This document shows, piece by piece, positions 24,788 to 54,282 of a stretch of DNA of 64,000 bases. Source of the stretch: Dudresnaya verticillata (lineage: Eukaryota); NCBI GenBank assembly GCA_977862235.1, contig OZ374558.1, positions 1,364,001 through 1,428,000 on the forward strand. The letters run 5' to 3'. Within the stretch, counting starts at the first letter, position 1, and each line of letters begins with the position of its first letter. Position numbers and translations under genes: made by a program. The notes beneath the pieces were generated by a model that saw only the letters and a list, made by a program, of their open reading frames with translations, ran no database searches and had not been told where the DNA came from.

Positions 24788-24878
24788 CCACCACCACAAC
24801 CACCACCACAACCACCACCACAACCACCACCACAACCACCACCACAACCACCACCACAACCACAACCACAACCACCAC
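24788..24878. repeat. (CCACCACCACAA)n / (CCACAA)n simple repeat just upstream of ATG 24886
   Basis: Directly visible. Confidence 0.95.
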
Positions 24879-24885
24879 CCGCGCC

Positions 24886-26490: not shown

Positions 26491-27139
26491 CTCGCTTACG
26501 TGTACCCTCTCCTCCACTCAGGATCCCAGTAGTAAACGACACAAAAACTCTCAATCCAGGGGATCTCTTCGTGCTTCACACGCGTGGCAAATAGCAATCA
26601 TGCATTTGCAGTGCTCCTTCCAAGGGTTCAACGCGTTACGGCAGGCCATGTCAGGGGCTACATCTGTTTATGGTTGAATTGTGAAGCAAGAGAATAGACA
26701 ATTACGGCAGAATACCGCATTTGGTTAGTAGCCTACTACATTTGCTCGTGTGGTGTGTATTACTTGAAGGCGAGAGGAGAGTTGAAGTCCAAAGTCGGGA
26801 TATGTCAAACATGAGCCGGCGTTGATTTCGAGCAGAAATCAGAAGGTTTGCAAAGGCAGCGAGCTTTCCTCGCCGCCGACTCTTTCTTGGTCTCTCCCTT
26901 GAAGCTGACGCTTGACTGGATTGCTGACCGGCCCCTTATGGCGGCAGTCGCCATTTGGAAGAAATAAAGTGACGCTCTCCGACATGCGTCCCGCACGGCT
27001 GTCAAGGCAAGAGTGAAAAAATCCTCAGCGTCCGGGCACAGCCTGTACGTAAAACAAGTCAACCGCAGTTTCAGTGTCACAGTTTTCAAACTTCGAAGAC
27101 TGCTCTACTCTTCTCGATGCTTTTTCCATTGTACTCACT

Positions 27140-28711
27140 ATGACCTCTTTTTCCCCATTCCACTCCCGATACACAGCCATTGTGCTTCTCTGCGTTGTGG
27201 CATCTTCCCAGAGTTGCACCTCTGCGCACAAGACGGGAACGCTGACGGAGACCAAGTTTTCAATCAATGAAGAATTCATTCTTACAAACGAAGCCATCGA
27301 CGTTGCAGAGCTTATTGAGAAGGTGATTAAAGAAGAGCCCCCTTCTATGGATGGAGTTGATGCAAGGGGCGATGCAAGCGATAGATCTCTGTTAGTACAA
27401 ACTAGGCAAGAGCAAGCCTTGAGCAAGCAGAAAAAGATGAGAAGAAGGTTGAGGAGAAAGTTCCGGAATTGGGCAAGGAAATATCGTAGAGCAGAAAGGC
27501 GGAAGATTAAGAGAGGAAAAGTAGATCAGGCTTGTCTTATCAACGACTACGAAGAGCGTCATGGTTGCTGCGAATTGAAAATTCGTGTCGAGGACGAAAG
27601 GTATGAAAGGAAGACAGGGAAGGCGCCGTTGGTGAAGTTTGGGAAAAAGGTTGCCTTCTGTGAGAAAGTTACTGAGGAGCTGTTCAACTCGTTGACAGAG
27701 GAGAGCATCCATCTGCCGGCTGACGACGAGAATAAACTCGTCTGTGACCTGAAGGAAATGGTAGCTCTGTTCCCACCAGATCTTCAGCCTGTCGCCGCGT
27801 TTTCTGTGAAGGCGTCTGCGCTCAGCTCCGGAAATGTTACGACACAAGTCGAATCGACGACGCGAAAGTCAGTAGAAGAGAAAAGGCAGCGCTACAAGGC
27901 CAAGCTGAAGAAATCGCAGAAGCGCAGCGAAGCGAGAGCGAAAAGGAGGGAACAAGCTCGTCGCGAGCATAGGGAATACAGGATACATCGTATCCACAAT
28001 AGTAGGCTGGCAGGGTTCTTGAGTACCATGACAAAACGATCGAAGCTAAAGCATAGAAAGGCGTCTCGACTGGGCGTGGACGTTTTTGACAAGTTTATAG
28101 TCGAGATGAAGAAATTGTACAAAGCCAAGAAGACTGCGGTCTACTTCCATGCTGCAGGGAAGAAATGGAAGACGTGTGCGTTTGTTGAATATAAGACAGC
28201 GTTATCCTCGACATGTTTGGACCTAGAAATCATTGATCCTAATGCCGCAGAGATGTCCCGCCCTCCTATTTGGGGCTGGGAATCTGGAAGAGCAGCCACT
28301 TACAAAACCACCAGTCCAGAAGAGAAGATGGATGCCGTTGATCGCTGGGATTGGTTATTCAATACGTTCAATAATGGCGGTGGCGATGACGGCGGCGACG
28401 GCGCTGACGGCGCTGACGGCGCTGACGGCGTTGACGGCGAAGACGACTATTACGACGAAGACGAAGATGAAGATGAAGATGATGAAGATGATGAAGGTGA
28501 TGATGACGAAGATGACGACGACGACGACGACAACGATGACGACGATGACGACGACGGGACGTCTTCTTCTTACACAAGCATCTACCTTTTCGGATCGCCG
28601 TCTCAATGCTTCACAGTTGATCTGTCGTTCTCGTGCTTCGCAGTGTGTTGCGATACATTGTATTCGTACAGCATATTTTGTTCTACACCTAATCTAAGCT
28701 GCTTCGCATAG
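27140..28711 (+). CDS. Secreted precursor paralog 1 (523 aa, intronless): K/R-rich body, Asp-rich spacer, C-terminal 6-Cys peptide
   Basis: Signal-like AIVLLCVVASS; W-x2-C-(A/G)-(F/W)-(V/I) motif shared with paralogs; ends CFTVDLSFSCFAVCCDTLYSYSIFCSTPNLSCFA. Confidence 0.8.
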   Translation: MTSFSPFHSRYTAIVLLCVVASSQSCTSAHKTGTLTETKFSINEEFILTNEAIDVAELIEKVIKEEPPSMDGVDARGDASDRSLLVQTRQEQALSKQKKMRRRLRRKFRNWARKYRRAERRKIKRGKVDQACLINDYEERHGCCELKIRVEDERYERKTGKAPLVKFGKKVAFCEKVTEELFNSLTEESIHLPADDENKLVCDLKEMVALFPPDLQPVAAFSVKASALSSGNVTTQVESTTRKSVEEKRQRYKAKLKKSQKRSEARAKRREQARREHREYRIHRIHNSRLAGFLSTMTKRSKLKHRKASRLGVDVFDKFIVEMKKLYKAKKTAVYFHAAGKKWKTCAFVEYKTALSSTCLDLEIIDPNAAEMSRPPIWGWESGRAATYKTTSPEEKMDAVDRWDWLFNTFNNGGGDDGGDGADGADGADGVDGEDDYYDEDEDEDEDDEDDEGDDDEDDDDDDDNDDDDDDDGTSSSYTSIYLFGSPSQCFTVDLSFSCFAVCCDTLYSYSIFCSTPNLSCFA

Positions 28712-29466
28712 TTCGATGCCAACCTTCTTTCTATGTCTCACAGTAAATTGCAATCAGCACAGCAAATGTTTTCACCACCTTGTTAGCTAAGAAGCTCTAC
28801 GCTATTTCTACTCACATTGCGCTCTTTTGTAGTCCATTAAGGATCGGGAGGAACCGTCTATTGTACAAAACTTGTAGGAGAATCAACCACCGAACGCTTG
28901 CTTTCGAGATGCCCATTGATGTGCAAGACGATGCGGTAGGTTTAGAACGTGAGCACGTGATGGGGAACAGCTGCTCTTGCAGGCATGACCCGCTCGCAAA
29001 GTGGCCTACATGCGTCAAAGCGTTTCAGCTGGCCTATGTCCAAACCTATCAGCGCTTCACCCATGACATTTGAAAGGAAGACCCCTCCCGCAAAGATTCA
29101 GGTCAACGTGAAAGGTGGTAGGTAATGTTGTCAGTGTATCTTGTCTCAGAGAGGGCATACAGGCCCTCTCTGAGACAAGATCAGCCTGCACAGGAGCAAT
29201 TATGTTGACTTGCTTCGAATAGCGCCCCCGCGCAGAGAGATGCGACCCAACTCGCCGAAATATTGTTTGCGAGAGAGATCGCAAGGTCTCTGTCTTGTTG
29301 TGCGGAAACGTCCTTCTTAAGAGCTGCATGCGTCAAGTCCTTCCAGAACAAAACAACCTATACCATTGCGGAACCCACAACCTTCTCTCTCTTTCCTGCC
29401 CTAAAGAGACCTGCTCCTATCCGGATACCCTCACGGAACCACCCACCACCCTTCACCCAACCCAAT

Positions 29467-30096
29467 ATGTCGCTCCGAATTGTCCCCCTTGTGTGCGCAC
29501 TCTTTGCATCACTCCTCATCGTTAGTCGTTTTGCAGTAGCAGCTCCAACAGATGAGAAAATGTCTCAGTCGACATTGTACAAACCAACCAGATTATTTTC
29601 CGCCTTTCAGCACATTGTCGAAAGCGTGGATTGGGTTGGTCTTCTCAACTCTGTTTCTCAATACAACTCTGGAAACTACCACAACTTCTTGCACAACGAC
29701 GCCTTCGGAAACTTTTCTGAGCAAATACCCGTCTACAATCCCCCAAGCACAGAGCAAGCGAATGCATTGAAGACCAAGCTGGAAGCATTGGAGCTTCTCG
29801 CCCTCAACGCCTCACTCTCTCCGCAAAACAAAACAGACTGGCAACCATTTGCTTCGGGACTAGTCTTTTCTTTCGGCAATGAAACTGCTGCCATGGCTTA
29901 CCACTGGGAGAGACAGCGGTGGATAACATGTGGCTTTGTCAATCTTACTAGCACTGTCGTAGACAAAAATGAGTCTGTCCGAATGTGTGCTTCAATGCAA
30001 TCTGTTGGTCTCTCACCTCCGACCAGGGCACCTATTGAGGGTCTTGACTACATTCTCCCAGCCTCAGGTTCTTCCTCCAATGACGGTGATGACGAT

Positions 30097-30139
<43 letters not shown>

Positions 30140-30311
30140 ATGACGAAGAAGAAACCTCCAATCGAGACTATTATAGCGACTACTACTACAACACAAGTGA
30201 CGCCACCGAGGTTAACTTGGCATCACCCCAGGTAGTTTGTACGTATCCAACAGTTGCGCACGATGAACTTTCCATTCCGTTGCATGAGCAATAATGCGAC
30301 AACTAACCAAG

Positions 30312-33400: not shown

Positions 33401-34546
33401 CCTACGCGGCACCACGCCACCTTCCGAGGTACTCTGCCCTGCACGGGGTGCAAACACGCCCCAACAGACTGCTTACTCAGCCATACGAGCTTGCTCGATG
33501 AGTTCAAGTTGAGGCGCGCCCGACACGATGACGTTGGCCGCTGCCGCGCTCGCGCTCGCACATTTTCGGATTATCCTTTATTGCCGACGCTTCGGACACT
33601 ATGAGTGTCGACCAACGTCCCAGCTGCTTTCCGTGCCCAAAGGTGAATCGACATCACCAACATGGAATGCAAGTTGTTTGTTCAGACCACTCTCAGTCTC
33701 CACGTTGAAGGAAAGTGGGAAAACGCTTCCACTCCATTCAGAGTATCCCCGGCAATCCTGCCTTCCTGCCGCCAACTTGCTACGTCTTGCAATAGCTGAG
33801 CTCGGTATTCTATGCATCGTACTGGAACCTGTCGTGCCCCGTTTGTATGGAATGTATCGGTCGGCTGTTTAGCACTGGCGCGTTTCTTTCTTTCAGGGTG
33901 ACATCCTGATAGCCTGGTTCACGAGTATTAGCGACACTTCGCCAGGTCCTACCAACGCTGTGCGGTGAGTATGATGCATGCGCTGGGCAATGTCGATGCG
34001 GAAGAAGGACGCTTTCGTCTGCATGTAATTAAGAAGCACAGGAGGCTTTGTGGCGTTCAGCTTCCTTGGCTGAAGTTTCTGGAAGGCAGCTATGCGAATT
34101 GGATGGAATTACGCCTGAGCACAAGTTGTCGATGATGGGAGACGTCTGTACCAGAGGTCATGCTGTCCTGCTCGCGCTCGAATTTGTTGTCGCCATATCC
34201 AGAAGCTTGCAAGGCATGTCGTGTTTGCGTCGCCATTCGAGCAACAGCCGGCTTCTCTTTCCAAGTTCTGACGCCGTCGGGCAATCTGCACTTTCGCCCT
34301 CGTTGGAACCGTGTGGATGGGTGTATCTGGCAGTCGAAACCGGCGAGGTGCTCTTCGAATTATTGTCACAACTGTGCGAGAGATACGCATTGGACGATGC
34401 ACACAGAGAATTGTGCGAGCTCGTTCAAATGCCATGTGTAACACGAATACAGCAGCGCAACGAGTCAAGAGAGCTTGTCTCAGTTCGCCAAGGAGTCACC
34501 GGAACAAACCTAGAGAACGCCAGGTTACACTCTTCTTTCAGCTACA

Positions 34547-35643
34547 ATGTGCGCCAGGGGTATTGCTCTTGCTGTACTGCTTGCCTCAATGCTTTCAGTT
34601 AGCATTGCCAGCAACCAGCAAACTAAAGCCGAGTTTGTTAGTTGCAAATTGCTGGAAAACGACGAGGACCTCATGTTGATAGAGCATGTCGAGGAGCTAG
34701 ACTCAGTGGACTGGGTCGGGAAATGCAAGTCGAAGTCCAAGCTCAATACTCGAAACTTGAAAGAGTTTGTTTACAACGACTACTTCAGCATTGCGCAACA
34801 GCCAAAAACCATATGTAGCGCAGAGTCAGCAGCAGTGAAAGAAGTGCGAATTGTGCTATCTGAACTCGAACAGCTAGCACTGAACGGGAGCCTCACTGCC
34901 GAAAACAAGACATACTGGCAGGCGTTTGCGCATGAAGCGGTAAACGCACTTGTCAACGAAACTGCAGCGTTTGTTTACCATGAGAAGAAGGTTCAGTGGG
35001 TGGCGTGCGGGTGGATTAATCTGCAGAAGATTCCTAGGATTGATGAAGATTGTTCAATAAGGATGTGCGCTTCGCTGCTTGCGCTTGGGCTGGCGCCACC
35101 GGACCGCCTGCCGGAAGAGGGCAAGGATTACGTCCCCAGGAAGCCAACTTCCAAGGGACCAGCTGGGCCGATTCCTCCTCCCCCCAGACACAGGCGGCTC
35201 GAGCTGACCGAAGATGCGCAGAAGGAAGCCATCCATGAAGAACGCAATGTTGTCAATTCGAAGACGCCGAATAGATATGCTCGGGACGCACAGTCTGGGC
35301 GAGTTTCAAATACCCGCACAGTGCCGTGGCACCGCAACCGCGAAAGCATCGAGGGGGCTGTGCGGTATGACTACGACCCAAACAGCATGACCGATGTGAA
35401 TCTATTCGGTGACATCAATAGTGGATGTAAGTGAACTTTGAATAGCGTTGCACGCGATCGTTGTGCCTTCGCGCAAGCAGTTTGACGCGACGAATGCAAC
35501 ATCTGACACCGACTTTTGACTCTTGTTTGATTTTTGAGTTTGTAGGTGGGTTTGCGGATGAAAGCAGTAGCTGCTCGGCTTTCTGTTGCTTCAGCATGTA
35601 TTCCATGTCGACGTTTTGTTATGGATTCTACGGGGAATGCTAG
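34547..35643 (+). CDS. Secreted precursor paralog 3 (325 aa); exons 34547-35426 and 35546-35643
   Basis: Signal peptide; shares SVDWVG, LExLALNxSL, NKTxWQxFA, NETAA, RMCAS, EGxDY with paralog 2; intron 35427-35545 GTAAGT...CTGAC...TAG; spliced end CGFADESSSCSAFCCFSMYSMSTFCYGFYGEC. Confidence 0.88.
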
Positions 35644-37203: not shown

Positions 37204-37774
37204 TGTAAGACGGACTGTAAGACACTGTAATTAGGTACTGTAACCCTAGACGATAGCCGACGGCCGTCCGTACGACGTGACCGATTCCTGCGGGATACTT
37301 AACCGGCTGGCCACCGCGGTCATCCCCTCGACCGTCTTTCCGGATCATCATTCAATACAGTAAACCTCGTGTCTCCCACATCGTAGCATCGACTGGTCAA
37401 CGTTTCTCCTTCTAGCCGCTGTAGATTCCTTGGCTGAGATATTGCTCACTTTCGTAACAGCTCACTGCCGTCGGCGTTGAGTCACAAGAATCTGAGCTAC
37501 CGCTCGGGACTTGTTCACCCGCTTCACCGCACCCTCCCAGCTTCTCACTAGGGCAGAGTCTCACCACCCCGCCGGTCCGATGTTGAACCGCCCGGTAGTA
37601 GTATGGCGCAACGAGTCAGTAGCCCGCTAAACGGAAAGGACAACTGTCCCGTACGCGCACTGACCCTAACGAGGGTATCTCAATGGGGCGTTGGTAGATC
37701 CTGGAGGGAAAAGGGTAAAAAGGGCTAGCGTCCCTGAAAGAAAGGGCAAAAGGAGCGGCGCCACCCTAACACTC
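37204..37774. repeat. Probable LTR-like repeat, left part; continues at 52064-52987
   Basis: Non-coding, begins TGTAAG, similarity patches to 22521-23330; both sides joined by TSD GTAGA. Confidence 0.35.
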
Positions 37775-37788
37775 GTAGATATAGTGCA

Positions 37789-38698
37789 AGTGGTGCAAAA
37801 CGTCTGACACGATAGACCGCCGAGCAGTTCGGGGCTCGGTGGGTAGCTGCACCCTTGGCGAGAGGTGGTCCTGCCGTGGGCGACTTGGTGGTAGAGCAAA
37901 GGAACACGCCTTGGGCGGACTGTAGACGACCGCGGCGGAAGGTGTGAAGGAAGGGAAAAGGAAACAGAAAGGGGACACGTCAAGGACGATGGTAGACGTG
38001 GAAGCACGGGAGGTAGACGCTTAGCCGTGGGCAGCGGTAGGATACGCGCGTGCGGAACGGGGAAGTCTGGACCAAGGCCGGCTTGCCCGGGCGTTTACTG
38101 TTACGTCTGGGACGGCTTACCTAAGTATAGTACGGCGTTGCGGCGGCGGCGGTGCGTGTGCGTAGCGCGGGAACTCGGGACACGTGTCGTCCCGAGGCGC
38201 GTCTGACAGATCACCGGTTGCATGCAGCCGCGCGCCTGACAGGTTGCCGTGCAACCCCCTGTATAGGTGCTTACACACACACGTGGACGCGTGGGCCTTT
38301 CAGCCGTGCGTGCGCGCGCACTGTAGAGCGTGCGCCTTGGATCTAATCCGATACTTGTCTGATCCCGATCCCATCCGGATCGGGCCAGCAATGCGAATAC
38401 CCGCAGCCTTACAGGCGCGTATCTTACAGCTTAGGCGATCCGGATAACCAATCTGGATACCGGATCCGGATCCCATCTGGATCCGTATTACAGTGCCCCG
38501 GGGCGCCACGTCGGGCCATCACCGTACAGTGCCCGCGTGGCGCGCGGCGCGCAGTGTGCACGCGCGCCCCAGTGAGCCGGCGATGACGTGTTCGCGTGCC
38601 AACGGCGGTGGTGAGCGCCGGTGGCGGTTTCTCCGTCGGTTGACGTATTTGGTCCGCCCACTTTCAGCGAAAAAGGGCTCACCTCCCCTTGCACCACA
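37789..38698 (-). repeat. 3' LTR of Gypsy B
   Basis: Direct repeat of 50249-51158; polypurine tract GGAGGGGGG adjacent at 38702-38710 on the minus strand. Confidence 0.96.
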
Positions 38699-38853
38699 CG
38701 ACCCCCCTCCAAAACGCGAACACGACCCGACCCTCAACCTGCTGTCGTGCGCTCTCCCGTCGTGTGCCTGCCAACTTCCGCGCCTTGCCAGCGAGTCCCC
38801 GCGCCTTCGCGTATTGTGTCGGTGCGCCCGCGTTTACGCTGCCCCGACATCAT

Positions 38854-39236
38854 CGCCCGTGGCGCATAACGTTGTCCGTCGTTGACGTCTATCGTATATC
38901 CCTCGCCTGGGGCGTTGCAACTTAATCGTCATCGGCGTCGTTTGTCTTTGGCATCGCCATTGGCGCAGCAGCCGAACGTCGTTGACGCGGGTTCCCTTTT
39001 CTCGCCTAAGGCGTCGCAACAGTAGTCGTCTTCGACGTCGTTTGCTTTTGGCATCGCCATTGGCGCAGCAGCTGAACGTCGTTGACGTGGGTTTCGTTTC
39101 CTCGCCTAAGGCCTTACAACAGTAATCGTCTTCGACGCACGCTTCTTGAAGCTTTCGCCAGTGGCGCAGAACACGAGTCGTCTTTGACGTTTGTACAAGC
39201 ATCACCTTTGGCGTTAACATATTCTCGTCGTTGACG
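38854..39236. repeat. Degenerate 50-bp tandem array (8 units), each with CGCC-N3-GGCG and CGTC-N3-GACG palindromes
   Basis: Motif starts at 38854, 38877, 38904, 38927, 38955, 38977, 39003, 39027, 39055, 39077, 39103, 39127, 39156, 39179, 39203, 39226. Confidence 0.9.
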
Positions 39237-39238
39237 TC

Positions 39239-41540
39239 ATGCCGATGTTCAATGGCATGCAGGTGGCGGCGCCCTCGGCTGCGCCGGTGTACGCTTCGCC
39301 GGTCGACTTCGTCGGAAATAATCCTCGCGATCACGCGCATTTCTTCGCGCGGGCCCCCTGGTTTGACCAGGAGGCCCTGCGCGAGGAAGAATTGGTTGCC
39401 CATCACGCTACTAGCGGTTTCTTGCCGGCGGCCTGCCCCTCGGCGTCGTCTGGACGTTGGAATGGAAGTTACGCTGCGCCGTTCCTGCGGAATGGCTTTG
39501 GGTGCGAGTGGGACAGTCGCGTGCGGACGTCCACGCGCAGTTCGTCTCAGACGTGTATCGTCGCTTCACGCGGTATCCGGGGTCGACGTTAACGCCGCCC
39601 TTGTTCAATTATGATGCGGGACAGTATCGCACAGCCGGCGAAGCCGAATATGGTGCTCGTCTTGGGACGTTATCGCTCAAACACGTGAGTGTGTCGATTG
39701 AGCCTCGCGTGTTGGGAGAGGCCTACCTGTTAGGCGTACGCTTGAAAGCGGATTTTCGTTACTTGCATCGTACGGGTACGTTCTTTTGGGAGCGTTGTAT
39801 CCGGTGGGAGTGCGAGACGCGTCGCCGAAAGGGCGTATTCGTACCTTACCAGGACATGCAGGTCGATCGCATTGAGCGTAGTAAGTTACCGTTTTGTTTC
39901 GTGAAGGTACCGCCTGTATGGCGAGAGTTTGAGATATGCGAGGGTTTCTCCGTAGAGCTTCCTCCGTGTGTCACGTATCGAGCTGATGACCGACCCCTAT
40001 TCAAGGTATTGGATCGTGTTTTACACGGAGTGGGTCGCCAATGTGGCGTATGCGTGGTTATGGGAGGCGTATGACACCTTCCGTATGTACCACTTGCCTC
40101 CGCGTGTGGTGGCTCAGCTTGGCAGCCTCGACTTGGTCGAAATATTTGGCGGGTCCCGGAACGCCGAGGAGTTCTGGAACCTGCGCGCTGTGGCGGATGA
40201 GATCGACTGGAACGACCCGGCAATGGTGCCGTATGCGAACAACCGCCGTAAGGCGAATCGTCCGCGCTTCGCGATGAGTCGGACTCACTCCGCCTGTGGC
40301 GATTGGGTCCATTATAACCCGTAGACTAAGCGTCGTACGACGAAGAACATTGCGGAGCGCCATCGCAAAACGGACCGCTTCACCCCGGGTAATCACCCGC
40401 GTGGTTTGCGTAAGAGCTGCGACTTTGTCGGTGATTTTCCTCCGCATTTGAGCGCCTTAATGGCCGAGGAGGATGCGTTTAACGCCGATGGCGGACCGGA
40501 GAACCCGTCTGGGACGGACATTGCTGCGCCTATGGCGGTTGAGTCGACTGCCGAGCCTGCGCCCGCGTCTTCGGCTTTGCCCGGAGGCGCTGTCGGTGGC
40601 GGTGGAGTGCCAGCTGGCCTGCCAGCTGTTTCTCCTCTGGACCTTGCGGCTCCCGTCGCTGACGATGATGGCGATGCCGTTATGGCGACGCCAATATTGG
40701 AGTCGGCTCCGCCGACCGTGACGCCTCAAGGCGAAGCATCAAACGTCGCAGACGGTTCTGGGGGTCCAGCTTCGGTGCCGGTTTGGACCGAAGAACAGCG
40801 CCGCACCGTGCTTGCGTTATTGCAAGCGGCAGGCGTCGCTACTAGCGGTCTGAGCGGCTCACCCACTGAGTGGATGAGCCAATCTTTGTCGGCTGGGGTC
40901 CCACCTCAGGGTGGGCCCACGCCGAAGTCGACTAGTGTCGTAGGTTCTGCGTCGAAGGACGGTGTGGCAGAGAAGCCTTCGTCGCCTAAGGCGAATGGTC
41001 CGGCGTCTAAAGACGTGAGTATGACTGTACCGCCTGTAGCGAGCGAAGCGAATGCCGCTATAGCGTCGTTGACGGTTCCAAAGGGGCCAGGGGCTCCTGC
41101 GTCATTGACTGGTGTTGGTTGGTTGGTTAACAGCACCGAAGGCGAGTGAAGAAGCGACGACAATCAAGGCGGTTTCTGAACTGACGCCAAAGGCGGTCGA
41201 CGAGTCGTTGATTACGCTTAAAGCGGATGGGGCTATGCCCGCGCCTAAGGCGAACGATGGCTTGAGCTCTGCGCCCGTGGCGGTTGTTATTGCTTCATCG
41301 CCTTTGGCGGATATTGTCGCGACGACGCCGAAGGCGATTGATGAGTCGCCCATCTCGCCTGCGGCGCCTGTTATAGTCACTCCGGCGGTTGCGGTGGCAA
41401 GGGCTTTGCGGTCCGCCCCGGCTCCTGCCGTGAGTGTACCGTCGAGGACGGAGGACGACCTCTATGAAGAGGCATTGCGTGAGTCCGCCGAAGGCGCCGT
41501 GGCTGTACCACCCGATTCGTCTGCGACGAAAGAGTCTTGA
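39239..41540 (+). pseudogene. Antisense extra ORF of Gypsy B (~765 codons; frameshifts near 39440, 39975 and 41130; TAG 40322-40324)
   Basis: Chain of overlapping ORFs 39239/39457/39968/40406/41112; W/Y-rich globular part similar to CACTA ORF2, then A/P/S-rich tail. Confidence 0.75.
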
Positions 41541-42845
41541 TGTCGTTTGAGCAACGGATAGCGGACGCGAGGTGCGTATTGTGTTGCCCTTCGGCTCCCT
41601 TGCGGGACGGATGAGCGGGGTATTCCCCTTCGTCTTTGACGATTAATGTAGCTGTAGTGGTCGATTGCTAGGGCGTGGGGTTGTCCCCATTTGCTTTTAG
41701 CCCAGTAACCTTCGGCCATTGTCAGCGTCTTTGTGTGTCGCGTTTCGCGTTGGCCTTAGGGTGTGACTTGTGATCCACTTTCTACTTTGCGTCGTGTTCT
41801 TGGTTGCCCGCTACAGTAGCGTTGGCGTTTGGTGCCATTGGCCTTAGCCGTGCGTTGGCACTTGGCTTTGTTTGCCCAGTAGGGTCCGCTGTAGTAGCGT
41901 TGTTCTTTGTGTTTCACGCGCGGCGTTGGCGTATTTCCGCTTACTTAGCGTTTTGTTTTTGTAGTTCATGTGTCGCACTGCGCCTTGGGCGTGGTTTGTT
42001 GGGTCACTGCGCCTTGGGCGTGGTTTTTCGGCGTCCTCGACGACGGTCGCGAAGGCGGTGAGGTAGGTTTTGACGCCTCGGAGTTGCCGCCCCTTTCGTC
42101 TTCGACGTTTCTCGTTGTGGGTAGGGTAGAGTTGTCGGTCGCGCTCGCGCGACTGCGCGGCGGCCGCAGGCAGCGGCGGAGTCGTTGGCGATTTGTTGGC
42201 GCGTCGTGCACGGAACCCGCAGCAACTGCGTCTTCGGCCACGTTCCCCCCCCCTTCGGGGGTGGGTTTGTCGGTGCGCCCCTTCTCGGAGAGTTACGTCG
42301 GAGACGTTCGATGGGTCTGGCTCGCGAGACCGTGGCCGGCAGGGTGGCGGTCCCAGGTACTTGGCCGTAGGGCGAGGCACGTCTCGACGTCGGAGACGGT
42401 TGTTGTGCGCTGCCACTTTGCACCTGTCGTCGCTGGTGCTCGTAGCACCTGCTCAGCAACTTGGCATAATTGCGTTCGTCGTGCGTTGACGGCGGGGTGG
42501 TGCGCGCTGCCGTGTTTGGAAATTAAAATTGGACCCATGTCTGCCTCCTATTACCCGAGGGGCGCCGGTGGCGGATCTCGATTTGCAATCTGGATCACTG
42601 TCAACAGCGCACCCATCCAGAGGTTCCGTATGGGGGCTGCTGCGAGGTGGCGTGCGCGAGGCTGTCTATGACGCAACGACTTGCGTCCGCGTTCGTCCAT
42701 GGCGTGCACACGTGGTTGGCGCTGTCGATCTGGCGACCGCGTCTACAGGCTATGGGTTGAGCTTCCGCGCCTTTGGTGATCGTAGGTCGAGCACGCGGTC
42801 TCGATCGTCCGTCCATTCGCTTCCAGCGGTATTTCCGGATTAGGG

Positions 42846-43058
42846 TTAGCCGCGCTGCGCGTCGTCGACGTTTGGCGGCAGCTGCGTACGTTTTCGACGG
42901 TGGTATCGTGTGACGTGGGAGCGCGGCAAACTGGAGACTGGCTCCCAGGTGTTCGCTGAAGCGGGGTATCCAAACCACTTGACGCGGTAGAGGATCTCAT
43001 CATCATCCGCGTATGCGTGCGACTCTATGCGTTCAATCACGTATTCTTTTCCGCTCAC
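42846..43058 (-). other. Chromodomain at the integrase C-terminus
   Basis: YVIERIESH...YRVKWFGYPASANTWEPVSSL; same frame as the integrase, beyond TGA 43224-43226. Confidence 0.92.
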
Positions 43059-46000
43059 AGCGTTCGGCTTGGACGTGGGCCTGTCCAGCGCCTTTGGCGG
43101 TTTGTCTCGTTGCGTGATGGGCGTCTGTTCCGGCTCGGCGAAGCGTACTCGACGAGTTGATCGCCGGAGGCGTTGGCCTTGGGCCTTGGACGCTCGATCA
43201 GCGGTCAGTGGATTGTTGCGTCTTCAGACGAGTTCATCGCTTGCAGCGCCTTGCTTTGTGCTTGCACGGTTAACGTCTTCGTTATCGGACGCGCTTTCAG
43301 CGGAGTCATTGTTCTGATTCGGCGGTGCCGTAGCGACGTGTTCCAAACGGGTGCGAACCCCTGGGGTACTGTCGTCGTTGGAGACGGATTGTGAAGCGCG
43401 GTCGTTGGGATCGGCGGGGAAGGGCGAAAGCTCTGCCAACCCACGGCTGCGTGACGCGGTGATCGTACGCTCTTGCGGATCTGCCGCAGTATGCGAAGTG
43501 TCTGCGTCCTCTTCCGGGTCCGCTGGTGGTGTGCTTGGGGTAGTCATCCCTTCGTCGTGTGACGTGGGGGCGACTGCTCCCTGCTCCTCAGGCGGGCCTG
43601 GTGGTACGACGATTGGAGGGGCCGCCTGACCCGGTGGGGTCGGCGCCCAGACCACGCGGTCTCGGGACAAACGTTCCCGCTCATCACGTCCCTTGTCGAC
43701 GGTTACTGTTTCGTTATCAACGTGAGTTACCCGGTATGGCCCGTCCGCCACTGGCGCCAGCTTATGCTTACGCTCTGCGCGATCCGTGCTCCCGCCTCGG
43801 GCGAAGCATTCCTTACGTACGAATACGAAGTCGCCTACGGCGATTGTTTCCTTCGATTTCCTTAATCGGGTATCGAAGTTTCGTTTGTAACGTGCTTGAG
43901 TTTTCTCTAACGACGCTTTAGCGGTTCCCATCAGTGCGGCCAGCCAGGTTCGCCACTTGGTGTAGTATTGCCCCGCGGTGGGTACGCTTTCGAGCGACGG
44001 TTCCGCTTCGAGCGACAATGGTCGTGGTGGCTTCAACAGCACCAATTCAAACGGAGCGAGATGCGTAGACGAATGCAACTGTGTGTTGTATGCGAACGTC
44101 AAGGCATCCGTGAACAGGTCCCAGTATCTCGGATGATCCGCAACGTAGTGACGCAGCGAGGCCAGGATGGTTCGATTGAATCGTTCTACCTGGCCATTGC
44201 ATTGCGGATGGTACGTCGTGGTGAAGAGGTTCTCCACTCCCAAAAGACGGCAGATATCCTGAAACAGCTTAGCCACGAACTGTGGTCCGTTATCGGACAA
44301 CAGTTTCTTGGGGGGGCCGTACACGAAGACCCAATGTCGTACAAACGCCTTAGCGGTTTCCAATGCCGTAATACCACGCAGTGGGACCGTCCGGACCAGC
44401 TTCGAGAAGCGGTCCACAATGACGAGTAGGAACTTGTTTCCTCGCTTCGTGCGTATGAGTTCGCCCAGGATGTCGATCGATACAAATTCGAGAAGCTCGG
44501 TTGCCGGGAACAACTTCAATTGCTTGGTGTTCTTTCGTAGTAATACTCGATTCTTAGCGCAAGTTACGCAGTTGCGGACGGTCGCATAGCAGTCCACTGG
44601 CATCGATGGCCAATAGTATTCGCGTCGAAGCGTATGATACAACTTACGCCCCCCTGGGTGCCCTGCCAACTTGGCGTGGTGCCGGAGGTGGAGTAAGCGA
44701 GCGCGTAACGCGGAGGGTACGACCACTTGCGGACGGACTTCCACTGTTCGGACCAACAGGCCCTGTTCATCCGTTGCGAACGGTAATATGATTCCGTCAT
44801 CCAGACGCTTCTTGACATCATTACAGTACTTGTCATCGCCTTGGGTGTGTACCAACTCCTCATGCGTCACTTGACGAAGGAGTACCTCATCCGCCGGTGG
44901 CGTGTTGTTGATCAACACTTGGTCGAACTCTTCGAACTCTCGCTCGGCGAAGGCGACCTCGCCTTCGGCGTCTGACAGATCTTCCTGTGACGTTTGATGG
45001 CCGTCTTCGACGTAGCTTCCGTGATAGCACGGTATATCATCGTCAATGGGCTCGACGGTTTCTCCCTTCGTCTGTAGACGCGAAAGGGCATCTGCCTGGG
45101 TATTGAGGTACCCCTTTTTGTACTTCACGACAAAGTCGAACTCGGAAAGGCGAAGGCGCCACCGCATTAACCGTCCAGAGGGGTCGCTGATTTCCATCAG
45201 CCACCTCAACGACTAATGGTCCGTATGGACTGTGAACGACTCCATCTGGAGGTAAGGTCGCAGCGTCATGACGGACCTACTGCGAGGCACTCCTTTTCGG
45301 AGACCGAGTAGTTACGCTCTGGAGCGGTGAGCGAGCGGGACCAGAAGCCGAGCGGCTTACGTTCCCCGTCGGGATGCGTCTGAAAGAGAGCGCAGCCGAC
45401 CTGATACTCGCTTGCGTCACAATCGACGGAATTGGGGAGACCCTGCTGTGGTAAAGCCAATATAGGCGGATGATTCACGGCCTCGACGAGCGTACTGAAC
45501 GCTTTGGCTTGTGTCTCATCAAACGGTTGTAACCGGAAGTCCTGTTCCTTCCTCAGCAACTTGTTGAGGGGGGCAGCGACATGCGCGTATCGCGAGACGA
45601 ACCGTCTGTAGACGTTACAAAGACCGAGGAAACTCCGTAGCTCCTTCTGATCCCGTGGATGCTTGGCTTCGCGTAGCGCGGCAGTGACAGTTCGGTCAAC
45701 TTCTAACCGTCCTGGACGTATGACGTGTCCTAAGTAGTTGACGGTCGGGGTGAAGAAGTCACACTTGATCAACTTCAGAGTCACCCCGGCGCGGTGCAAT
45801 GTCGAAAGGATCTCGTCAACATGACGGAAGTGACTATCGATGTCGTTGGAGAAGATTATTACGTCATCGAGGTAGACGAGGCACGAACGCCACTTGTAAC
45901 CAGCGAGTATTATGTCCAACGTTCGTTGAAACGTAGCGGGTGCGTTCGTGAGACCGAATGGCATACGCTTATAGCGGAACAGTCCGGCGTGGCACGTGAA

Positions 46001-47560
46001 CGCAGTCTTGTCGCGGTCTCGCGGATTGATCGGCACTTGCCAGTACCCACTGTTACAGTCTAGGGTGGTGAAGACGTTTGCTTCCCCTAGACTGTCGATG
46101 CATTCGTCGATACGCGGCAGGGGTACGTGTCCCGTATGGTTACTGCGTTTAAGCGACGGTAGTCCACGCAAAAGCGGAGGGTCCCGTCCTTCTTGGGGGC
46201 GAAGACCACTGGTGACACCCACGGCGATTGTGCGGGCTCGATAACCCCTTGACGCAGCATGCGGTCCACTTCCGCTTGAGCGAGTTCTCTTTGCTTCGGG
46301 CCCGCTCGGTAGGGCGGGGACGATATTGGTCTAGAGCCGGGAAGCAAGTCGATGTAGTGCTCCGTGGTTGAGATTTCTCCCAACGAACCGTCCCACATAG
46401 ACGAATACTTGCGCAACATCTCCTTAAGCCGGCCTTGATGCTCGGCGGGGAGATGTCCCAGGTCCAAATCGTCTACTGACGGAGGTTTGGCAGTGGTTGC
46501 CTCGATAGACTTCGTGAAAGTATCCGGCTGTGCCGCAGTGTTATCATTCGTTTGAAAACGGAAATCTTGGTTTGCCTTCTCTTCCTCGGCTTGTTCCTCG
46601 GTGAGGCCCAAAACATCGGCTAGACTTACGTGACTGGGGAACACTGCTGTCGGATGTGGTAACGCCGTCGCGACGACTTGGGCCTTGGCCAGCGCCTGCG
46701 GGCGGGGAGAGAAGTTGGCAACCAGAATGCGAAACGCTTTTAGCGGCTCCACTTGAGCAATCCCGTTCGTAACGGCCAGAACTTGTTTGTCGTACAGCGT
46801 TACGAGCGGTTGAATCGTGATGATGCCGGCGCGCTCGGTGGTCACCGATACCCATTGCTGCGCCTTAGGCGGGATGATCGCGCGCTCGGCGACTCGGATC
46901 TTGGGTGACGTCCTCCCTTCGGCCTTGCCGTATTCCTGTTCCGTTGGTACCGGAGGGTACGACGGGGGTCGGCGCAGCGGGCGGCGCGTTATAGGGACGC
47001 GAGTCCCGTCATCCAATTCAACCTCGCGACTTCGCGGATATATTGCTTCGACGAAGCGGTCGCAAAAGTCGCAGCCGAGTATAACCGGCGCAGCGAGTCG
47101 TTCGCAAACGATCAGTTCCAACTTGACGACTCTCCGTCCTAGACGAACGACCAGGTCGATGGTGCCTCTTGTCTGGATCGCCTTATTGTTGGCGTCGGCT
47201 ATGACGGGGAGGCTCTTTGCCACGATGCACGATCGCGCTTCCAGCGGAATGTCGTTAATGCGAATGAAATTCGGACCAGCTCCGTGTCGAGAACAGTGAG
47301 TTTACGTGCCAAGGTACTAACGGTTGCGCCCAAATCGGCGTACACCTTATAGTTCCTCTTGGCCATTACGAACAACTGCCCTCGCGTTTGGGGGGCTGGT
47401 ACCTTCGCCATGGGCGTTTTAATGACGTCTGTGACGACTCTATCCGCCCGTTGGCGTCATCGGTAACTAACTTCGGGCCCTCCTTCCGTGTCAGCACCTG
47501 AGGCCTAGGCCTCTCGTCGTGGTGCGACACCCCAGTGTCAGGAGTTGGTGCCCGAGTTAG
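42846..47560 (-). pseudogene. pol: Gypsy B pol (protease, RT, RNase H, integrase, chromodomain) with several frameshifts and a stop
   Basis: [51 protein letters not shown]...CVTC, IDILG, SDNG, ERFNRT. Confidence 0.95.
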
Positions 47561-50121
47561 TTTTTCGCCTGCGGCGGTGGTTGTGGCGCTTCATAGCGAT
47601 TGATCATCGTCGGATGACGTTCTGCCGCGTGCGGCATGGGTCCGCCTCGTGGCGATTGTGGTCGTGCAGCACGGCGAGCAGCGTCGCGGGTCGCGCGTTC
47701 CTTGCAACGTACATACGCATCAGCGCGGACACCAGCCTTCTCGGCTTCGGTTAGTCCTTCATAGTTGGTAATAACCTTTATGAAGTCGCTCATGCAGAGG
47801 AAGCAGTCCGGCGCGATGTGTCCGCGGGCGTAGCATTGGTGGCATACCAGCTGCCGACGCGAGTCTTGACGGGGCGGGCCTCTGTCCTGACATCCGGGCC
47901 TTTCTCGGTGGACGTGAGGAGCATACTCGGAATAGGGGACGCGTGGCGCTGGTACGACCGAGCGCCCAAAGGCGAGAGCAGGGTCTATATCCCTTTCGTC
48001 TTCGTCATCGACGCAACTGTCCGTCGGTAGAGCCGAGGTTGGCACCGACGCTTGCTCGTCTGCCAAGTACAGATCGCCTTCGGCGTGTGTTTCCATGTCA
48101 TCGAAAGGGCGACTAACGTCTCGAAACTCGACGGAGGGCTCCGCTATCATAGCGCGCGCTCCAGGCTTGGTGCCTCTAGTCTGTGGACGCAGTAACCCTC
48201 GGGCATCGCCGATGGCGGATCGCGGTGTGCGTACGGCTTGAGCCGGTGTCAATAGGTCACGTCGGGCTGACGCGGAACCGGCCCTGCCGTGTCGTGCGCG
48301 GTTGGCATCCCCTTCGTCTTGTGCGAAATGGACCAGCCGCTCAAATGACAACTCCGCCCTTGGCGTTTCTTCTCGGAAGCGAGCGACCAGGGACCTGATC
48401 GACGGGTCTAACCCGTCGATGTACAGCGTCATCTTTTCCCAATCGGGATATACGTTACCGCAACGAATACACGCACCGGCTAGCCGCATCCCATAGGTCG
48501 TCTTGTCCTCGCCTTGTTTTTGGGCAGTCGACCGTAGGGCGAGGACAGCGTCCCTGATCGCCGCTGGCGTAGTATACGTACGGAGGAGGTACTGTACCGC
48601 CTCCGGATACGAAGACACACGGCCGCGATGGCGAGAAGACGTCGACTTAACGGAGCGGAATTGCGTGGCTGCCGTACCTCGCAAGAATTACGGCAGCGCG
48701 ACGAACGCTTGGGCTTCGCTCATCTCCAGCGTATCGGCTTCATCCGCGTAACGCGTCAGAAACTCGAGGACCATGACGGGGTCGCTGCCGTTGAAGGCGG
48801 CGTCCTTCATGGTCAGCTCCAAACGCTTGATATGGTCCTTGACCTTACCCGTATCGCGCCCTGAGCGTTTTTGCCCTACGTCTTTGAGACGGTACGTCCT
48901 GTACGATAATAACTGATCGAAAAGGGGGTTGGAGGGGCGTAGCTCCTTCAACCCCTTGAACCGCTTTCCGCGAGGTCTTGAGGCACTGCCGAGAGTTGGA
49001 AAGTCGTCGTCTTCAGACGAAGAGTCTGATAACTCTCCGTCACTTGACGAGTCCGAAGAGGACGAGGATGAGTCCCCTCGTCGATGACGATCCTTCTTCC
49101 GTCTCTGACGCAGCTTGCGTCGGCGTTTCTTCCGATCCTTTCGTCTGTGACGATCTTCGCATGAGCTCTCGTCACCCGACGGTGGACCATTGCGCCACTT
49201 GGCGGTTTCGAGACGCTCTAAGCGAGTCCTAAGTCGCTGAAAGCGTTCGCGTGAGCTAAGCTCGGAATGCGAATGAACCGTTACTGCCGGCGGTGGTTGT
49301 GTACCCTCGCCTTGGGCGTTTTGGTTCGTCAATAGACGGTCGAGGTCGGATCGAAGTCCTTGTAGGGCGCCGTTTCGATCCTCTTCCAACGTCTGTAGAC
49401 GACTTGCGATTCCTCCGACACTGTCGTCCAGCAACCCGGCGAATCGAGCGAGCATCGCATCGTCCTCTAAGACGCACACCTCTCGGATCCGTTCGCGTGG
49501 TATCGTTACGTTACTCACGCGGACGGCCGAGGGTGACGCCGTTGGCGGTTGGCTTTCGCGGTTTGACCGGTCGGGCGTCCCTTGCGCCCTTTGACTTGGC
49601 GACTTCGGCTTAGCCGGCGAACACCCGGCACTGCCGTGGGGAGTGGGGCAACATGCCCCTTGTGTCAATGGTTCGTCAGCGACGTTGCGCTCCGCGGAGC
49701 GCCCTTGATCGTCGTTGACGTGGTTGGTTGGTTGATCCGAAAGTTCCGGTTGTCCCTCGACGATGTCGGCTTGTGTTCCGTCTACGACGTCCTGTTGCTC
49801 GGCTTGTACTGTATCAGCCGAGTCAACATAGGAGCGGTAGGTGCGGAGGGCCGATCCCTCGGGGACTGAGGTGCGGACGACGACGGGGTTGTGGCGCGTC
49901 GGCGGGGGAGGTAACTCTCCTCCGTTGAGCGACGCGTGGGAGCCTGCGTGGCCGTGGCCCGGGGGTAGCGTTGGGAACGCCGACGCGATCTCGGGGCTCA
50001 CGAGGCGCCCAGACCTCGTTGTCATCCGCTGTAGCGACCGTTCTGACGCGGGTACACTCCGAGGCGTCGAAGACGGTCTTCTTGAACTTGGGCCTCGCGA
50101 CAGCGGCGGTCGTGAGGCCAT
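47557..50121 (-). pseudogene. gag: Gypsy B gag with one in-frame TAA (48688-48690)
   Basis: Two same-frame ORFs; YRTYRL motif; zinc knuckle CHQCYARGHIAPDC; ends G AAA AAC TAA. Confidence 0.9.
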
Positions 50122-50230
50122 GATACAATCGTAGAGTTGCTTGAACGTCGTGGATGATTAGCGACAAACGTCTGAAGACGGAGGGTCGGACGTCGCACGA
50201 CGGAGTAACTCGTTGAAACGTAGCACAATT

Positions 50231-50246
50231 CTAGGTCGGGAGACCA
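50231..50246 (-). promoter_or_regulatory. Primer-binding site of Gypsy B
   Basis: TGGTCTCCCGACCTAG 2 nt after the 5' LTR. Confidence 0.9.
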
Positions 50247-50248
50247 GA

Positions 50249-51158
50249 TGTGGTGCAAAACGTCTGAGACGATAGACCGCCGAGCAGTTCGGGGCTCGGT
50301 GGGTAGCTGCGCCCTTGGCGAGAGGTGGTCCCGCCGTGGGCGACTTGTTGGTAGAGCAAAGGAACACGCCTTGGGCGGACTGTACACGCCCGAGGCGGAA
50401 GGTGTGAAGGAAGGGAAAAGAAAACAGAAAGGGGACACGTCAAGGACGATGGTAGACGTGGAAGCACGGGAGGTAGACGCTTAGCCGTGGGCAGCGGTAG
50501 GATACGCGCGTGCGGAACGGGGAAGTCTGGACCAAGGCCGGCTTGCCCGGGCGTTTACTGTTACGTCTGGGACGGCTTACCTAAGTATAGTACGGCGGTG
50601 CGGCGGCGGCGGTGCGTGTGCGTAGCGCGGGAACTCGGGACACGTGTCGTCCCGAGGCGCGTCTGACAGATCACTCATCGCATGCAGCCGCGCGCCTGAC
50701 AGGTTGCCGTGCAACCCCCTGTATAGGTGCTTACAGACACACGTGGACGCGTGGGCCTTTCAGCCGTGCGTGCGCGCGCACTGTAGAGCGTGCGCCTTGG
50801 ATCTAATCCGATACTTGTCTGATCCCGATCCCATCCGGATCGGGCCAGCAATGCGAATACCCGCAGCCTTACAGGCGCGTATCTTACAGCTTAGGCGATC
50901 CGGATAACCAATCTGGATACCGGATCCGGATCCCATCTGGATCCGTATTACAGTGCCCCGGGGCGCCACGTCGGGCCATCACCGTACAGTGCCCGCGTGG
51001 CGCGCGGCGCGCAGTGTGCACGCGCGCCCCAGTGAGCCGGCGATGACGTGTTCGCGTGCCAACGGCGGTGGTGAGCGCCGGTGGCGGTTTCTCCGTCGGT
51101 CGACGTATTTGGTCCGCCCGCTTTCAGCGAAAATGGGCTCACCTCCCCTTGCACCACA
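50249..51158 (-). repeat. 5' LTR of Gypsy B
   Basis: TGTGGTGCAA...TTGCACCACA inverted termini. Confidence 0.96.
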
Positions 51159-52987
51159 CGTCGTTGACGGAACACCGCCGAGCAGTTCGGGGCTCGGTGG
51201 GTAGCGACGCCCGTGGGGATGAGTAGCCTCGCTTTGGGCGACTTGCGGTAGAGCAGTTGACTCGCCTTGGGCGGACTGTAAACGCCCGAGGCGGAAAGGA
51301 AGAACAGGAGAAACAAAAAGGGAACACGTCGAAGACGGGTAGAGACGTGGAAGCACGGGAGGTAGACGCTTAGCCGTAGGCAGCGGTAGGGTACGCGCGT
51401 GCTGAACGGGGAAGTCTGGACCAAGGCCGGCTTGCCGGGGTTTACTGTAACGTCTGAGACGGATCAACTAAGTATAGAATTACCTAGCGGCGGCGACGCG
51501 GGTGTACGCGTCACGCGGGAACTCGGGACACGTGTTGTCCCGAGGCGCGTCTGACAGATCCGTCCGTCATGCAGCCGCGCTCCTGACAGATCACGCGTAG
51601 CTTCCCCGCTCGAGTCCTTACACCTACACGTGGATTACTTCCTTACAGCCGCATGCGCCCCATGGCGAGTGCGATCTCGATCCGCACCAATCCAGATCCA
51701 GTCCGGATTCGGGCCAGCCATGCGGATGCGCCAGGCTTACAGGCGCGTGCCTTACACCCCTTAATCGCGATGTCTGATCCCGATGTGGGATCCCGATTGG
51801 ATCCGGATTCGGGCCACGCTTACAGCGAACGTTCCCGCCACTGCGCCATGCGCGTACGCGTGGCGCCGTACAGTGCCCGGGTCCAGGCGTGCGGTCTGCA
51901 TTCCAAGCGAGCCGTTCTGGCCCAAGTGGCCAGCGGCATGCGTCGGTGACGTGTTTGCGCCGCGGGCGGGTTGAGCGCGCCGTTGGCGGTCGTCCGTCGG
52001 TAGACGAAGAATATCAACCCGCTTGAAAGCGAAAAAGGGGGACCCCCCTGGCACTACAGTAGAGTACAAAGCCGTACGAGGCTAAAGCTTTTAAAGCACC
52101 TGGAAGGGGAGTACGGTGAGCCCGTGTAGACCAAAGAAAGGGTACAGACCCGAAACCCACCGTAGGGTTCTATTCAGCAGACCCCTGCTAGTCAGGGGCG
52201 CAATAAATATGGCGAAGGCCGAAAGCGCCTTCGCCGCTATTCCTATTCTAAGCTATCGTAGTTAGCGTTAATACTTACAATGAGGTAGTGAGCGGTCTGA
52301 CTCCGCCCTGCGCACGTCAGGTACTCATGACTCGGGCACGCTCCTGCGCGTAAGGCCATGATAAATCAGCCAATCACGGCAAGCCATCTCATTTGCGCCG
52401 TTCTGTTCCCAGCAATGAAATTTGGAGTGGCCAGGAATGCCCTGGGTCTTACAGTGCGTCCGTACGGGCGGCACCTTACAGGCGCATGCCACGCGCAATA
52501 TTACCCGAGCATTGTGGCACACGCATGACAGGCGCAAAACACGTGTACGTGCTTACAGCCCCTGGCGGCGTATTGTACCGCACGGCCCTCTCTCTAAAGC
52601 TGAGAGACCCGCGAAGCCAGCAAGGCTGTTTCCATTGGCCCGGTTGGGGCGGACGTGCAGTGGACGTCCCAAACGGCCCGTTGAGGGCAGTTATAACCGC
52701 CACCAAAACGCCCGTCTCACGACGCGCGAGGGCGACAAATCATTGCACGCCCGTCCGGCGTCGGTGTGGTGAAATGAGCTGTTGCGCGCATGCCGCACGC
52801 CGACGGTGAGTCAACCGTAACGGGTGATGTGGCAATACGCCACGCTGATGATCTGGCAACGTGTAGCCGTGTCGGGTGTGTGCGCATTACTGTGCACTGG
52901 TACGCATCGCTGTACTGTAAGCGGAGCGCACCAACCGTAGCGGAGTATTTGTATTGTAGTATTTATTCTTTATTTTTAGTGAGCATA

Positions 52988-53460
52988 TGTACAGTATGTA
53001 GAGTAGCGCGCCAGCCAATGAGAATGCTGCGCATGTCCGTGTCGGAGATACCAGCAGGGCCGATTCCACCATAGGACCAGACCACTAGGGTCTGGCCCCC
53101 ACGGACCGGACCGCTCGGTGCCACCCTGACTTGTATATCAGGGCGGCACCGCAGCGGCTCCTAGGGTAAACGGACAAGCAACCCTTGAGCCTCAATCCCA
53201 CTGTAGCTCTTTCCTTTATGTTTTTCCCCGCGCCGAGCCCGTTGCGGTCCACCACCACCACCGTTACGGGGTCCGTCCCGGCACTTGTACCACCCCCTTG
53301 TCTGTTGCTTCCCAATATCCGTTTCGGTTAGCCGCTTGCTGTTCTCCCGTCTCGGTGCGAACTGCTCTACCACCCCGTGGAGGTAGTGTCGCTCTCGTCC
53401 CGTGTAGGAAAGTTAGGCCAGCTGTCCGGTACGGAGTTCGTGGGTTTTCACTGCACCACA
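52988..53460 (+). repeat. 5' LTR of Gypsy C (473 bp)
   Basis: TGTACAG...CACCACA, followed by the PBS. Confidence 0.85.
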
Positions 53461-53608
53461 TATTTTGGTCTCCCGACCTAGAACACCGTCACGGTTGGAA
53501 GAAACAGCCGTCGAAATCCGCTACGGTACGAATTCGGCTGTACCGACAACCTGTTACGGAATATTGTAAAGACAAGCAAGAACAACCGTTGTGTTCCGTT
53601 AAGGCATC

Positions 53609-54202
53609 ATGCAGAACGAAGAACACGCAGACCCTCCCGTTACGGAACCTAAAGCGGGTGACACTACCCCCGCTGCGCGCAGTCTGCGCAGTGAAGGAGG
53701 TGAAATCCGTTCCGGAGTGGAGAACCCAGAAGACATCCTTAAGGGTGCTGCTGGTAAAGCTCCCCGTTCCCGTGTCGGATCAGACGCCTCGAAGAAGGTA
53801 GCTCCGCAACCCAAACCGGAATCCCATCGGGTCCACTGGGTCCTGTAGGAGGTCATTCCTAGGGTGTTAGAGCATCTCCGATTGGAAGTACAACCTGGAA
53901 TGGTAAAAGAGGTGGAGATATTCCTCTCGGGAACTGTTCCGTCTTTGGTTAATTCCTATCTGGAGAAGCACCTTCCTCGGATAGTGCAAGCTTTGATTCT
54001 ACAGGAAAAGGTGGCCGCCGAGCTCGAGAGCCAGATTGCTCCCGGTATGGCAAGGCCTCCCGCTACGGAAGCTTTTACTGAGCAACCACCGTTACGGAAT
54101 GACTTCCCGGTCGAGGGAAAAACGCAGCAGCCGCAACAACCGCCCGTTATGGGATTACAGCCGGGTACAGTACCCTCAGGGCAACTGCCACCGGCTCCCT
54201 AA
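53609..54202 (+). pseudogene. Gypsy C ORF1 with in-frame TAG (53846-53848)
   Basis: Homologous to 1239-1919, where this codon is TCG. Confidence 0.75.
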
Positions 54203-54282
54203 CGGATTCTCAACATCAATACGCCCCTACGGGACCAACGCACACTCAGCCACCGTCACGGTATTCTCCTGGACACGTAGCT

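Follow-up and report, generated by a model that had tools for sequence, protein, structure and literature searches.

A Ty3/Gypsy retrotransposon in the window (the whole 64,000-nucleotide stretch of Dudresnaya verticillata DNA) carries an additional gene, antisense to gag-pol, in the interval that separates pol from the 3' LTR; the encoded protein has a folded core and a disordered tail, is soluble by hydropathy, and its reading frame is open across many divergent elements. Very probably the gene moves together with this Gypsy lineage, and selection acts on it at the protein level. The copy in the window is most likely no longer functional and would have been complemented in trans; its intact relatives are tentatively regarded as soluble nuclear accessory proteins which keep element copies transcribed against host silencing.

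The Chromodomain Gypsy Element

The element is 13.4 kb in length, lies on the minus strand, and is bordered by LTRs of 910 bp each (3' LTR, 37789–38698; 5' LTR, 50249–51158, both −) that show 18 differences, the outermost base of the 3' LTR being unlike that of the 5' LTR. The primer-binding site (PBS; 50230–50248, −) starts with TGG two bases inside the LTR end, and the polypurine tract (PPT) occupies 38699–38712 (−); two LTRs, a PBS, a PPT and the pol order RT-RNase H-integrase together identify a Ty3/Gypsy element. Pol (43224–47400, −) contains a protease region followed by RT, RNase H and integrase, the latter three recognized by Pfam, and terminates in a chromodomain (42846–43223, −; PF00385, E 2.3e-10) that shares a frame with the integrase behind one in-frame stop. 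This fusion is intact in relatives, and a chromodomain fused to integrase is one feature used to define chromoviruses, the other being an RT that clusters with Chlamyvir/Tcn1/Tekay/Reina/Galadriel/CRM; as in group I chromodomains, the three aromatic-cage residues, as defined in PMC3350952, are present as Y/W/Y when judged by eye. Brown-algal Gypsy elements that carry a chromodomain have been reported not to be chromoviruses (PMC12477816), so the window element is a candidate chromovirus. Damage to pol amounts to three frame switches and two stops, one of which precedes the chromodomain (five breaks in ~4.5 kb). A gag-like frame at 47557–50157 (−), with one in-frame stop at 48688–48690, is named from position and layout similarity only and has no Pfam match above the cut-off.

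An RT tree, proposed in the original prediction as the means of placing the lineage, was built from the 120 best pol matches and the window RT alone; 115 of the 120 join the window RT in one clade (116 leaves, support 0.935). Within it a single member, Agarophyton chilense, is named, while all five named matches from non-algal organisms lie outside the clade; this grouping with Agarophyton makes a red-algal origin of the lineage likely. A search of a viral contig collection with the integrase found no relative.

No target-site duplication belongs to the element alone (window 37780–52058). It begins ~9 bp within the terminus of a related solo LTR (77%), and a 5-bp duplication, GTAGA, bounds the whole composite, which may have formed when the element inserted into a similar LTR end or recombined with one. 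Two further Gypsy-like remnants (1–2564 and 52988–57061) are related, ~70% alike, in opposite orientation, and contain gag-like frames, with LTR-like pieces at 21719–22416 and 56310–57061; a profile of the extra gene finds no match in either remnant.

The Antisense Gene and Its Decay

Between the end of the chromodomain ORF (42846) and the PPT (~38712) lie 4134 bp, in agreement with the gap of 4.1 kb originally noted, and the decayed antisense ORF, originally put at ~765 codons, spans 767 codons on the plus strand from the ATG at 39239 to the stop ending at 41540. Its size (at least 250 codons), place and strand are those of an antisense 3' extra ORF (eORF-3'R), present here as a decayed gene. 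The frame is not open; it consists of four plus-strand pieces and a tail piece, separated by frame switches near 39430–39460, 39980 and 41110–41135 and by an in-frame stop at 40322–40324. Piece A (39239–39450, +) starts at the ATG and encodes the N-terminal part of the core (profile E 1.9e-10; 24 of 91 homologues); piece B (39430–39980, +), in the next frame, encodes the middle of the core (profile E 1.9e-56) and was the query in the homologue searches; piece C (39980–40324, +) encodes the C-terminal part and ends in the in-frame stop (profile E 3.1e-34), through which 36 of the 91 homologues align. Piece D (40325–41135, +) contains the end of the core and then a tail rich in Ala, Pro and Ser, in which a short helical motif lies near 40808, and piece E (41109–41540, +; stop 41538–41540) is aligned by a single homologue.

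The coverage of piece B (88/91) is circular, because the 91 homologues were found with that piece. Both sides of the first switch are bridged by 24 of the 91 and both sides of the second by 50, while 19 cover all three pieces; since unbroken homologues run across the breaks between them, pieces A to D are, on these alignments, one ancestral frame. Piece E is likely a continuation of the low-complexity tail, as its base periodicity is of the coding type and like that of the remaining pieces (G at the three codon positions 0.48/0.08/0.45) and PK[AG] motifs change frame at the break before it; if piece E is left out, the gene has 637 codons and is still inside the range of its relatives. Short introns were considered behind the frame switches and rejected, as a crude scan found no fitting GT..AG pair at three of the four breaks and the homologues are contiguous there. 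A reading as two separate genes, the core and a second gene from an ATG near 40460, was likewise rejected because homologues carry core and tail in one frame.

The protein was originally described as not env-like, and this description holds: env-like genes are in sense orientation and encode a transmembrane segment, whereas this gene is antisense and, as judged from hydropathy values, encodes in this copy neither a hydrophobic N-terminus nor a transmembrane segment. The highest 19-residue hydropathy is 0.83–1.17 in the first four pieces and 1.62 in the Ala/Val-rich piece E.

Upstream of the gene is a tandem repeat with a 100-bp unit in 2.4–3 copies (38901–39190, no strand assigned). Each unit carries the 11-base motif CGTCGTTGACG, and a further copy at 39226–39236 directly precedes the ATG; four copies thus lie within 360 bp of the ATG, three of which stem from one tandem duplication. 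The motif, picked after the fact, occurs seven times in 64 kb against 0.05 expected, with six copies inside the Gypsy element and one in the adjoining related LTR. A bacterial promoter scan, a method not apt for a eukaryote, found nothing. On the other side of the gene, the spacer at 41541–42845 (no strand assigned) is likely non-coding; its longest plus-strand frame has no codon periodicity, and it has no Pfam or Rfam match. A 240-codon plus-strand frame at 41949–42671 was rejected as coding, and an Rfam scan of 37700–43000 returned no match.

Protein Family

An exhaustive HMMER search with piece B recovered 91 homologues, each representing a cluster at 50% identity, at E≤0.001 (24 at E≤1e-10); these are 25–43% identical. 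A word-indexed search with the same piece gave zero matches, and one with the family alignment gave only three. The unbroken homologues, of which there are dozens, span 372–893 residues. The whole core of ~370 residues is present in 37 of 90 profile-matched members and is followed by tails of 3–305 residues; the tails are of low complexity and rich in A/P/S/G/T/E/D/Q. The short helical tail motif is found in 11 of the 37 by a strict pattern and in 24 of 35 tails by profile.

The family alignment includes 76 of the 91 homologues, 15 short or doubtful matches being left out. Conserved columns are of W, R, E, Y, P, G and D, and the nearly invariant residues are R117, E121, F159, E175, R179, G183, Y231 and D343 in the numbering of the intact homologue P0122; among the 76 aligned members there is no invariant column and no conserved Cys or His. 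The net charge of the core ranges from -14 to +9 in 40 members and is not clearly basic; basic clusters resembling an NLS occur in only 14 of 37 members, and hydropathy exceeds 1.6 in only 11 of 76.

The only named members among the 30 of 91 clusters looked up are four near-identical hypothetical proteins from four scaffolds of Gracilariopsis chorda, which form one cluster; no named cellular homologue was found in these 30. PXF40140.1 is an example of an intact natural member. Some "hypothetical proteins" in red-algal genomes can now be assigned to transposons. Pfam gave no credible match for the 76 members (four families, each with one member, at E 0.017–0.041), and a sequence search of the PDB gave one match, to UHRF1 (6vee; E 0.15), which was not accepted. 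PHROGs had no match to four family members and the ESM Atlas no usable match to P0122 or to a further member, P0139. According to reviews, nothing similar to the antisense extra ORFs is known from outside their elements. The family was not found described in the literature searched, which did not extend to Repbase entries and subscription journals.

Predicted Fold

AlphaFold2 predicts P0122 to form a single compact domain of 385 residues with a disordered tail (pLDDT 91.1, pTM 0.89, order up to residue 385). Foldseek found zero matches at E≤0.001 in the PDB or among predicted viral folds (BFVD), and rows for p38 kinases (TM ~0.1) were dismissed as noise. A VIA-align comparison of a 411-residue model with 48,161 chains reached a best Z of 2.4, where models without a match typically reach 7–8. 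Within the scope of the PDB, BFVD and the VIA-align chains, and for a model of more than 400 residues, the prediction suggests that the core fold is undescribed. A domain or motif that would point to DNA or chromatin binding was found in none of the Pfam, PDB-sequence or fold searches.

Linkage to pol

Contigs with homologues of the extra gene were compared by length with those of pol relatives, an indirect approach that gives no orientation. Of 16 homologue contigs of at least 7 kb, six equal a pol-relative contig to the base pair (0.13 expected), and among all 48 recorded member contigs seven equal one among 115 pol matches (0.27 expected); of these seven, the short one (2844 bp) is likely chance, as it has no room for both genes. 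The six matched pols sit on several branches of the RT clade.

Orientation is seen in loci fetched with the integrase, where two of 37 show the antisense layout and most are short or distant. Downstream of its integrase and chromodomain, locus L036 carries a decayed family member (E 3e-12) on the other strand; L032 has a weak match (E 0.01) with the same arrangement. The former is a metagenome contig in which an RT frame (35–1564, +) is fused to the end of the integrase by an internal deletion and is followed by the chromodomain, the family member occupying 2744–3292 (−).

Distances in the extra gene do not correlate with those in RT-RH over seven pairs (rho 0.16, p 0.31; low power), and mean identity is ~34% in the extra-gene core versus 63% in the RT-RH of the matched pols; strict co-descent of the two has no support from these seven pairs, a sample of low power.

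A Possible Relative in a CACTA/Plavaka DNA Transposon

The same window contains a CACTA/Plavaka-type element of 18.8 kb (2919–21686). Its terminal inverted repeats begin CACTACAAGTCCATTTC; a transposase-like frame of 1330 codons (4960–8952, −) has a weak match to PF18759 (E 0.02), the three to four accessory ORFs have zero matches in Pfam or PHROGs, and the element also holds a perfect 50-bp palindrome (9823–9872) and an imperfect one of 52 bp (3855–3906). Giant CACTA families with 4–5 ORFs are described from Chondrus (PMC6431247).

One accessory ORF (10657–13938, +; in-frame stop 11959–11961), first spotted by eye, may be a remote relative of the extra gene. It matches the family weakly, at 7.4–7.8 bits, and by hhalign at E 0.009. 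The 7.8-bit score compares with at most 4.3 among 2000 shuffles, and the hhalign score of 24.2 with 18.7 in 60 hhalign shuffles. Among the 41 window frames of at least 200 codons it ranks best after the extra gene itself (p 1.1e-4, ~0.005 corrected; next 0.022), and its alignment to the family is nearly gap-free over ~150 columns at 11–17% identity. When folded with the family alignment the ORF shows the same helix order (pLDDT 73, pTM 0.72), an outcome that is alignment-driven and has no control; the helical tail motif of the family is absent from its tail, which shows no similarity. On balance these comparisons lean slightly toward homology between the CACTA ORF and the extra-gene family.

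If the CACTA link is true, the gene's origin lies in exchange between transposon classes and its function is directed at the host, in a group whose chromatin silencing has barely been studied. It is doubtful, as the broadest form of this idea would have it, that the Gypsy and giant CACTA/Plavaka elements of red algae share an ancient anti-silencing protein of new fold, which in Gypsy would be driven separately in antisense beside a chromodomain that reads histone methylation.

Comparison with Known Systems

Where the antisense extra ORFs of LTR retrotransposons come from and what they do is an open question, to which the window element adds an independent case from a chromodomain lineage. The extra gene of the original prediction, placed in a chromodomain Gypsy between its pol and 3' LTR, proved real, whereas the predicted link to the plant Retand/Tat lineages is supported no further than by analogy. 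The likeness is one of layout, as Tat/Retand elements also carry antisense 3' extra ORFs (TRP28, PF04195; Grande gene23; RIRE2) (PMC11963269). Retand elements, however, are non-chromoviruses, occur in flowering plants and possess an additional RNase H, whereas the window element has a chromodomain and an RT that groups with red-algal ones. No Pfam match to an additional RNase H was found in the window pol pieces or in the domain lists of the best 120 pol matches, with which the window pol is colinear, and profiles of TRP28 (at E≤0.05) and of the plant mobile domain PMD (PF10536) matched 0 of 76 family members. Identification of the gene as Retand/TRP28, PMD or env was rejected on the chromodomain, these profile results, the antisense orientation and the low hydropathy. 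Extra ORFs and large non-coding regions are described mainly for the non-chromovirus OTA superclade in the portion of PMC6317226 drawn on here, from which red algae are absent.

Grande GENE23 is nuclear and has its own antisense promoter (PMC7264820). VANC, encoded by the VANDAL DNA transposons of Arabidopsis, is an anti-silencing protein whose targets lie in tandemly repeated non-coding DNA of the element itself (PMC5735166). VANC serves as a model of mechanism only, by analogy, in that an element-encoded protein would have tandem-repeat targets in non-coding DNA; the searches found no sequence or fold link between it and the extra-gene family, it belongs to a DNA transposon, and DNA binding and demethylation are known for VANC whereas any such activity of the extra-gene protein is hypothetical.

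Within red algae, transposons carry chromatin-related accessory genes, and the TEs of Cyanidioschyzon are silenced by H3K27me3; the Plavaka accessory genes PAG1–3, described from Bostrychia, are mobile, and PAG1 has no known domain (preprint, 10.1101/2025.02.11.637652). PAG1–3 resemble the extra gene as accessory genes of red-algal transposons that move between families, and a possible relative is present here in the 18.8-kb CACTA/Plavaka element; they differ in that the portion of the preprint drawn on reports them in DNA transposons and Fanzor-encoding elements, not as Gypsy antisense genes, a comparison made by description only. The present case, likely red-algal, is directly testable, since the family is deep (91 clusters), natural members are available intact and the unmatched fold has been modelled with confidence.

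Proposed Role and Alternatives

A nuclear anti-silencing role is tentatively considered the most likely because the possible CACTA relative has no retroelement partners and VANC provides a precedent; the CACTA relative, if real, has no Gag, RT or integrase to serve and would therefore have a host-directed role. Being antisense to gag-pol, the gene would need its own transcript, from a promoter in the vicinity of either the tandem repeats or the 3' LTR; the protein would enter the nucleus and target DNA or chromatin of the element, possibly the CGTCGTTGACG repeats upstream of its start, and element copies would stay active against host silencing in the manner of VANC. The cage-type chromodomain would be expected to steer insertions into H3K27me3-silenced chromatin. 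Nuclear location, an antisense promoter of its own and VANC-like action on DNA or chromatin are drawn by analogy and are put forward with some reserve. Counting against such a role are the failure of the searches to turn up a domain, fold or motif for DNA or chromatin binding, the core charge that is not clearly basic, and the small share of members with NLS-like clusters.

It is fairly unlikely that the protein is instead a retrotransposition cofactor, binding Gag, integrase or genomic RNA and aiding particle assembly, nuclear import or target choice in the way of retroviral accessory proteins. Linkage to a Gypsy lineage would suit such a role, which has been proposed for plant antisense ORFs (PMC7264820), and the Arg- and aromatic-rich core could bind RNA; however, the CACTA relative, if real, lacks such partners, and co-divergence with RT was not seen in seven pairs, at low power. 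The nearly invariant residues between R117 and D343, together with the single compact domain predicted for the core, could also belong to an enzyme of new fold whose substrate would be nucleic acid, chromatin or some component of host defence, with conserved Arg, Glu, Asp and Tyr forming the active site. Enzymatic extra ORFs are shared between types of retroelement in rotifers (PMC5408684), and putative domains of a methylase and an oxygenase are among those encoded by Plavaka genes of red algae (10.1101/2025.02.11.637652). This is judged quite unlikely given the absence of an invariant column, of a conserved Cys/His metal site and of a fold match, and it would overlap the anti-silencing role if the target were the element's own chromatin.

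A captured host gene, a passenger from a nested transposon, or a locus in which the antisense RNA alone matters would fit the damage to this copy, whose four breaks within 2.3 kb are no sparser than those of pol; genomic context is known for only a minority of the 91 homologues, and the CACTA similarity could reflect an old nested insertion. Dozens of unbroken members of 400–900 codons that retain conserved columns at 25–40% identity, their spread over several branches of the RT tree, and the lack of a named cellular homologue in the 30 clusters looked up make these explanations very unlikely. Pit connections are a route of passage between cells, and a non-env factor for movement or spread through them would occupy a position like that of env-like and movement genes; PMC7264820 leaves the role of such ORFs open. 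The gene is antisense, however, the window copy has no signal or transmembrane segment, high hydropathy is confined to the few members noted above, and BFVD gave no match, so that a movement factor is extremely unlikely.

Other Features of the Window

Three ORFs (27053–28711, 29209–30294 and 34514–35434) have signal-like hydrophobic starts and zero Pfam matches; long runs of Asp/Glu close two of them, and by eye the second resembles the third. The GC-rich ORF at 24766–26235, also without a Pfam match, has a signal-like start, repeated β-rich segments and a Cys-rich end. A frame of at least 1044 codons (60867–64000) runs off the window and resembles a Copia gag-pol by eye.
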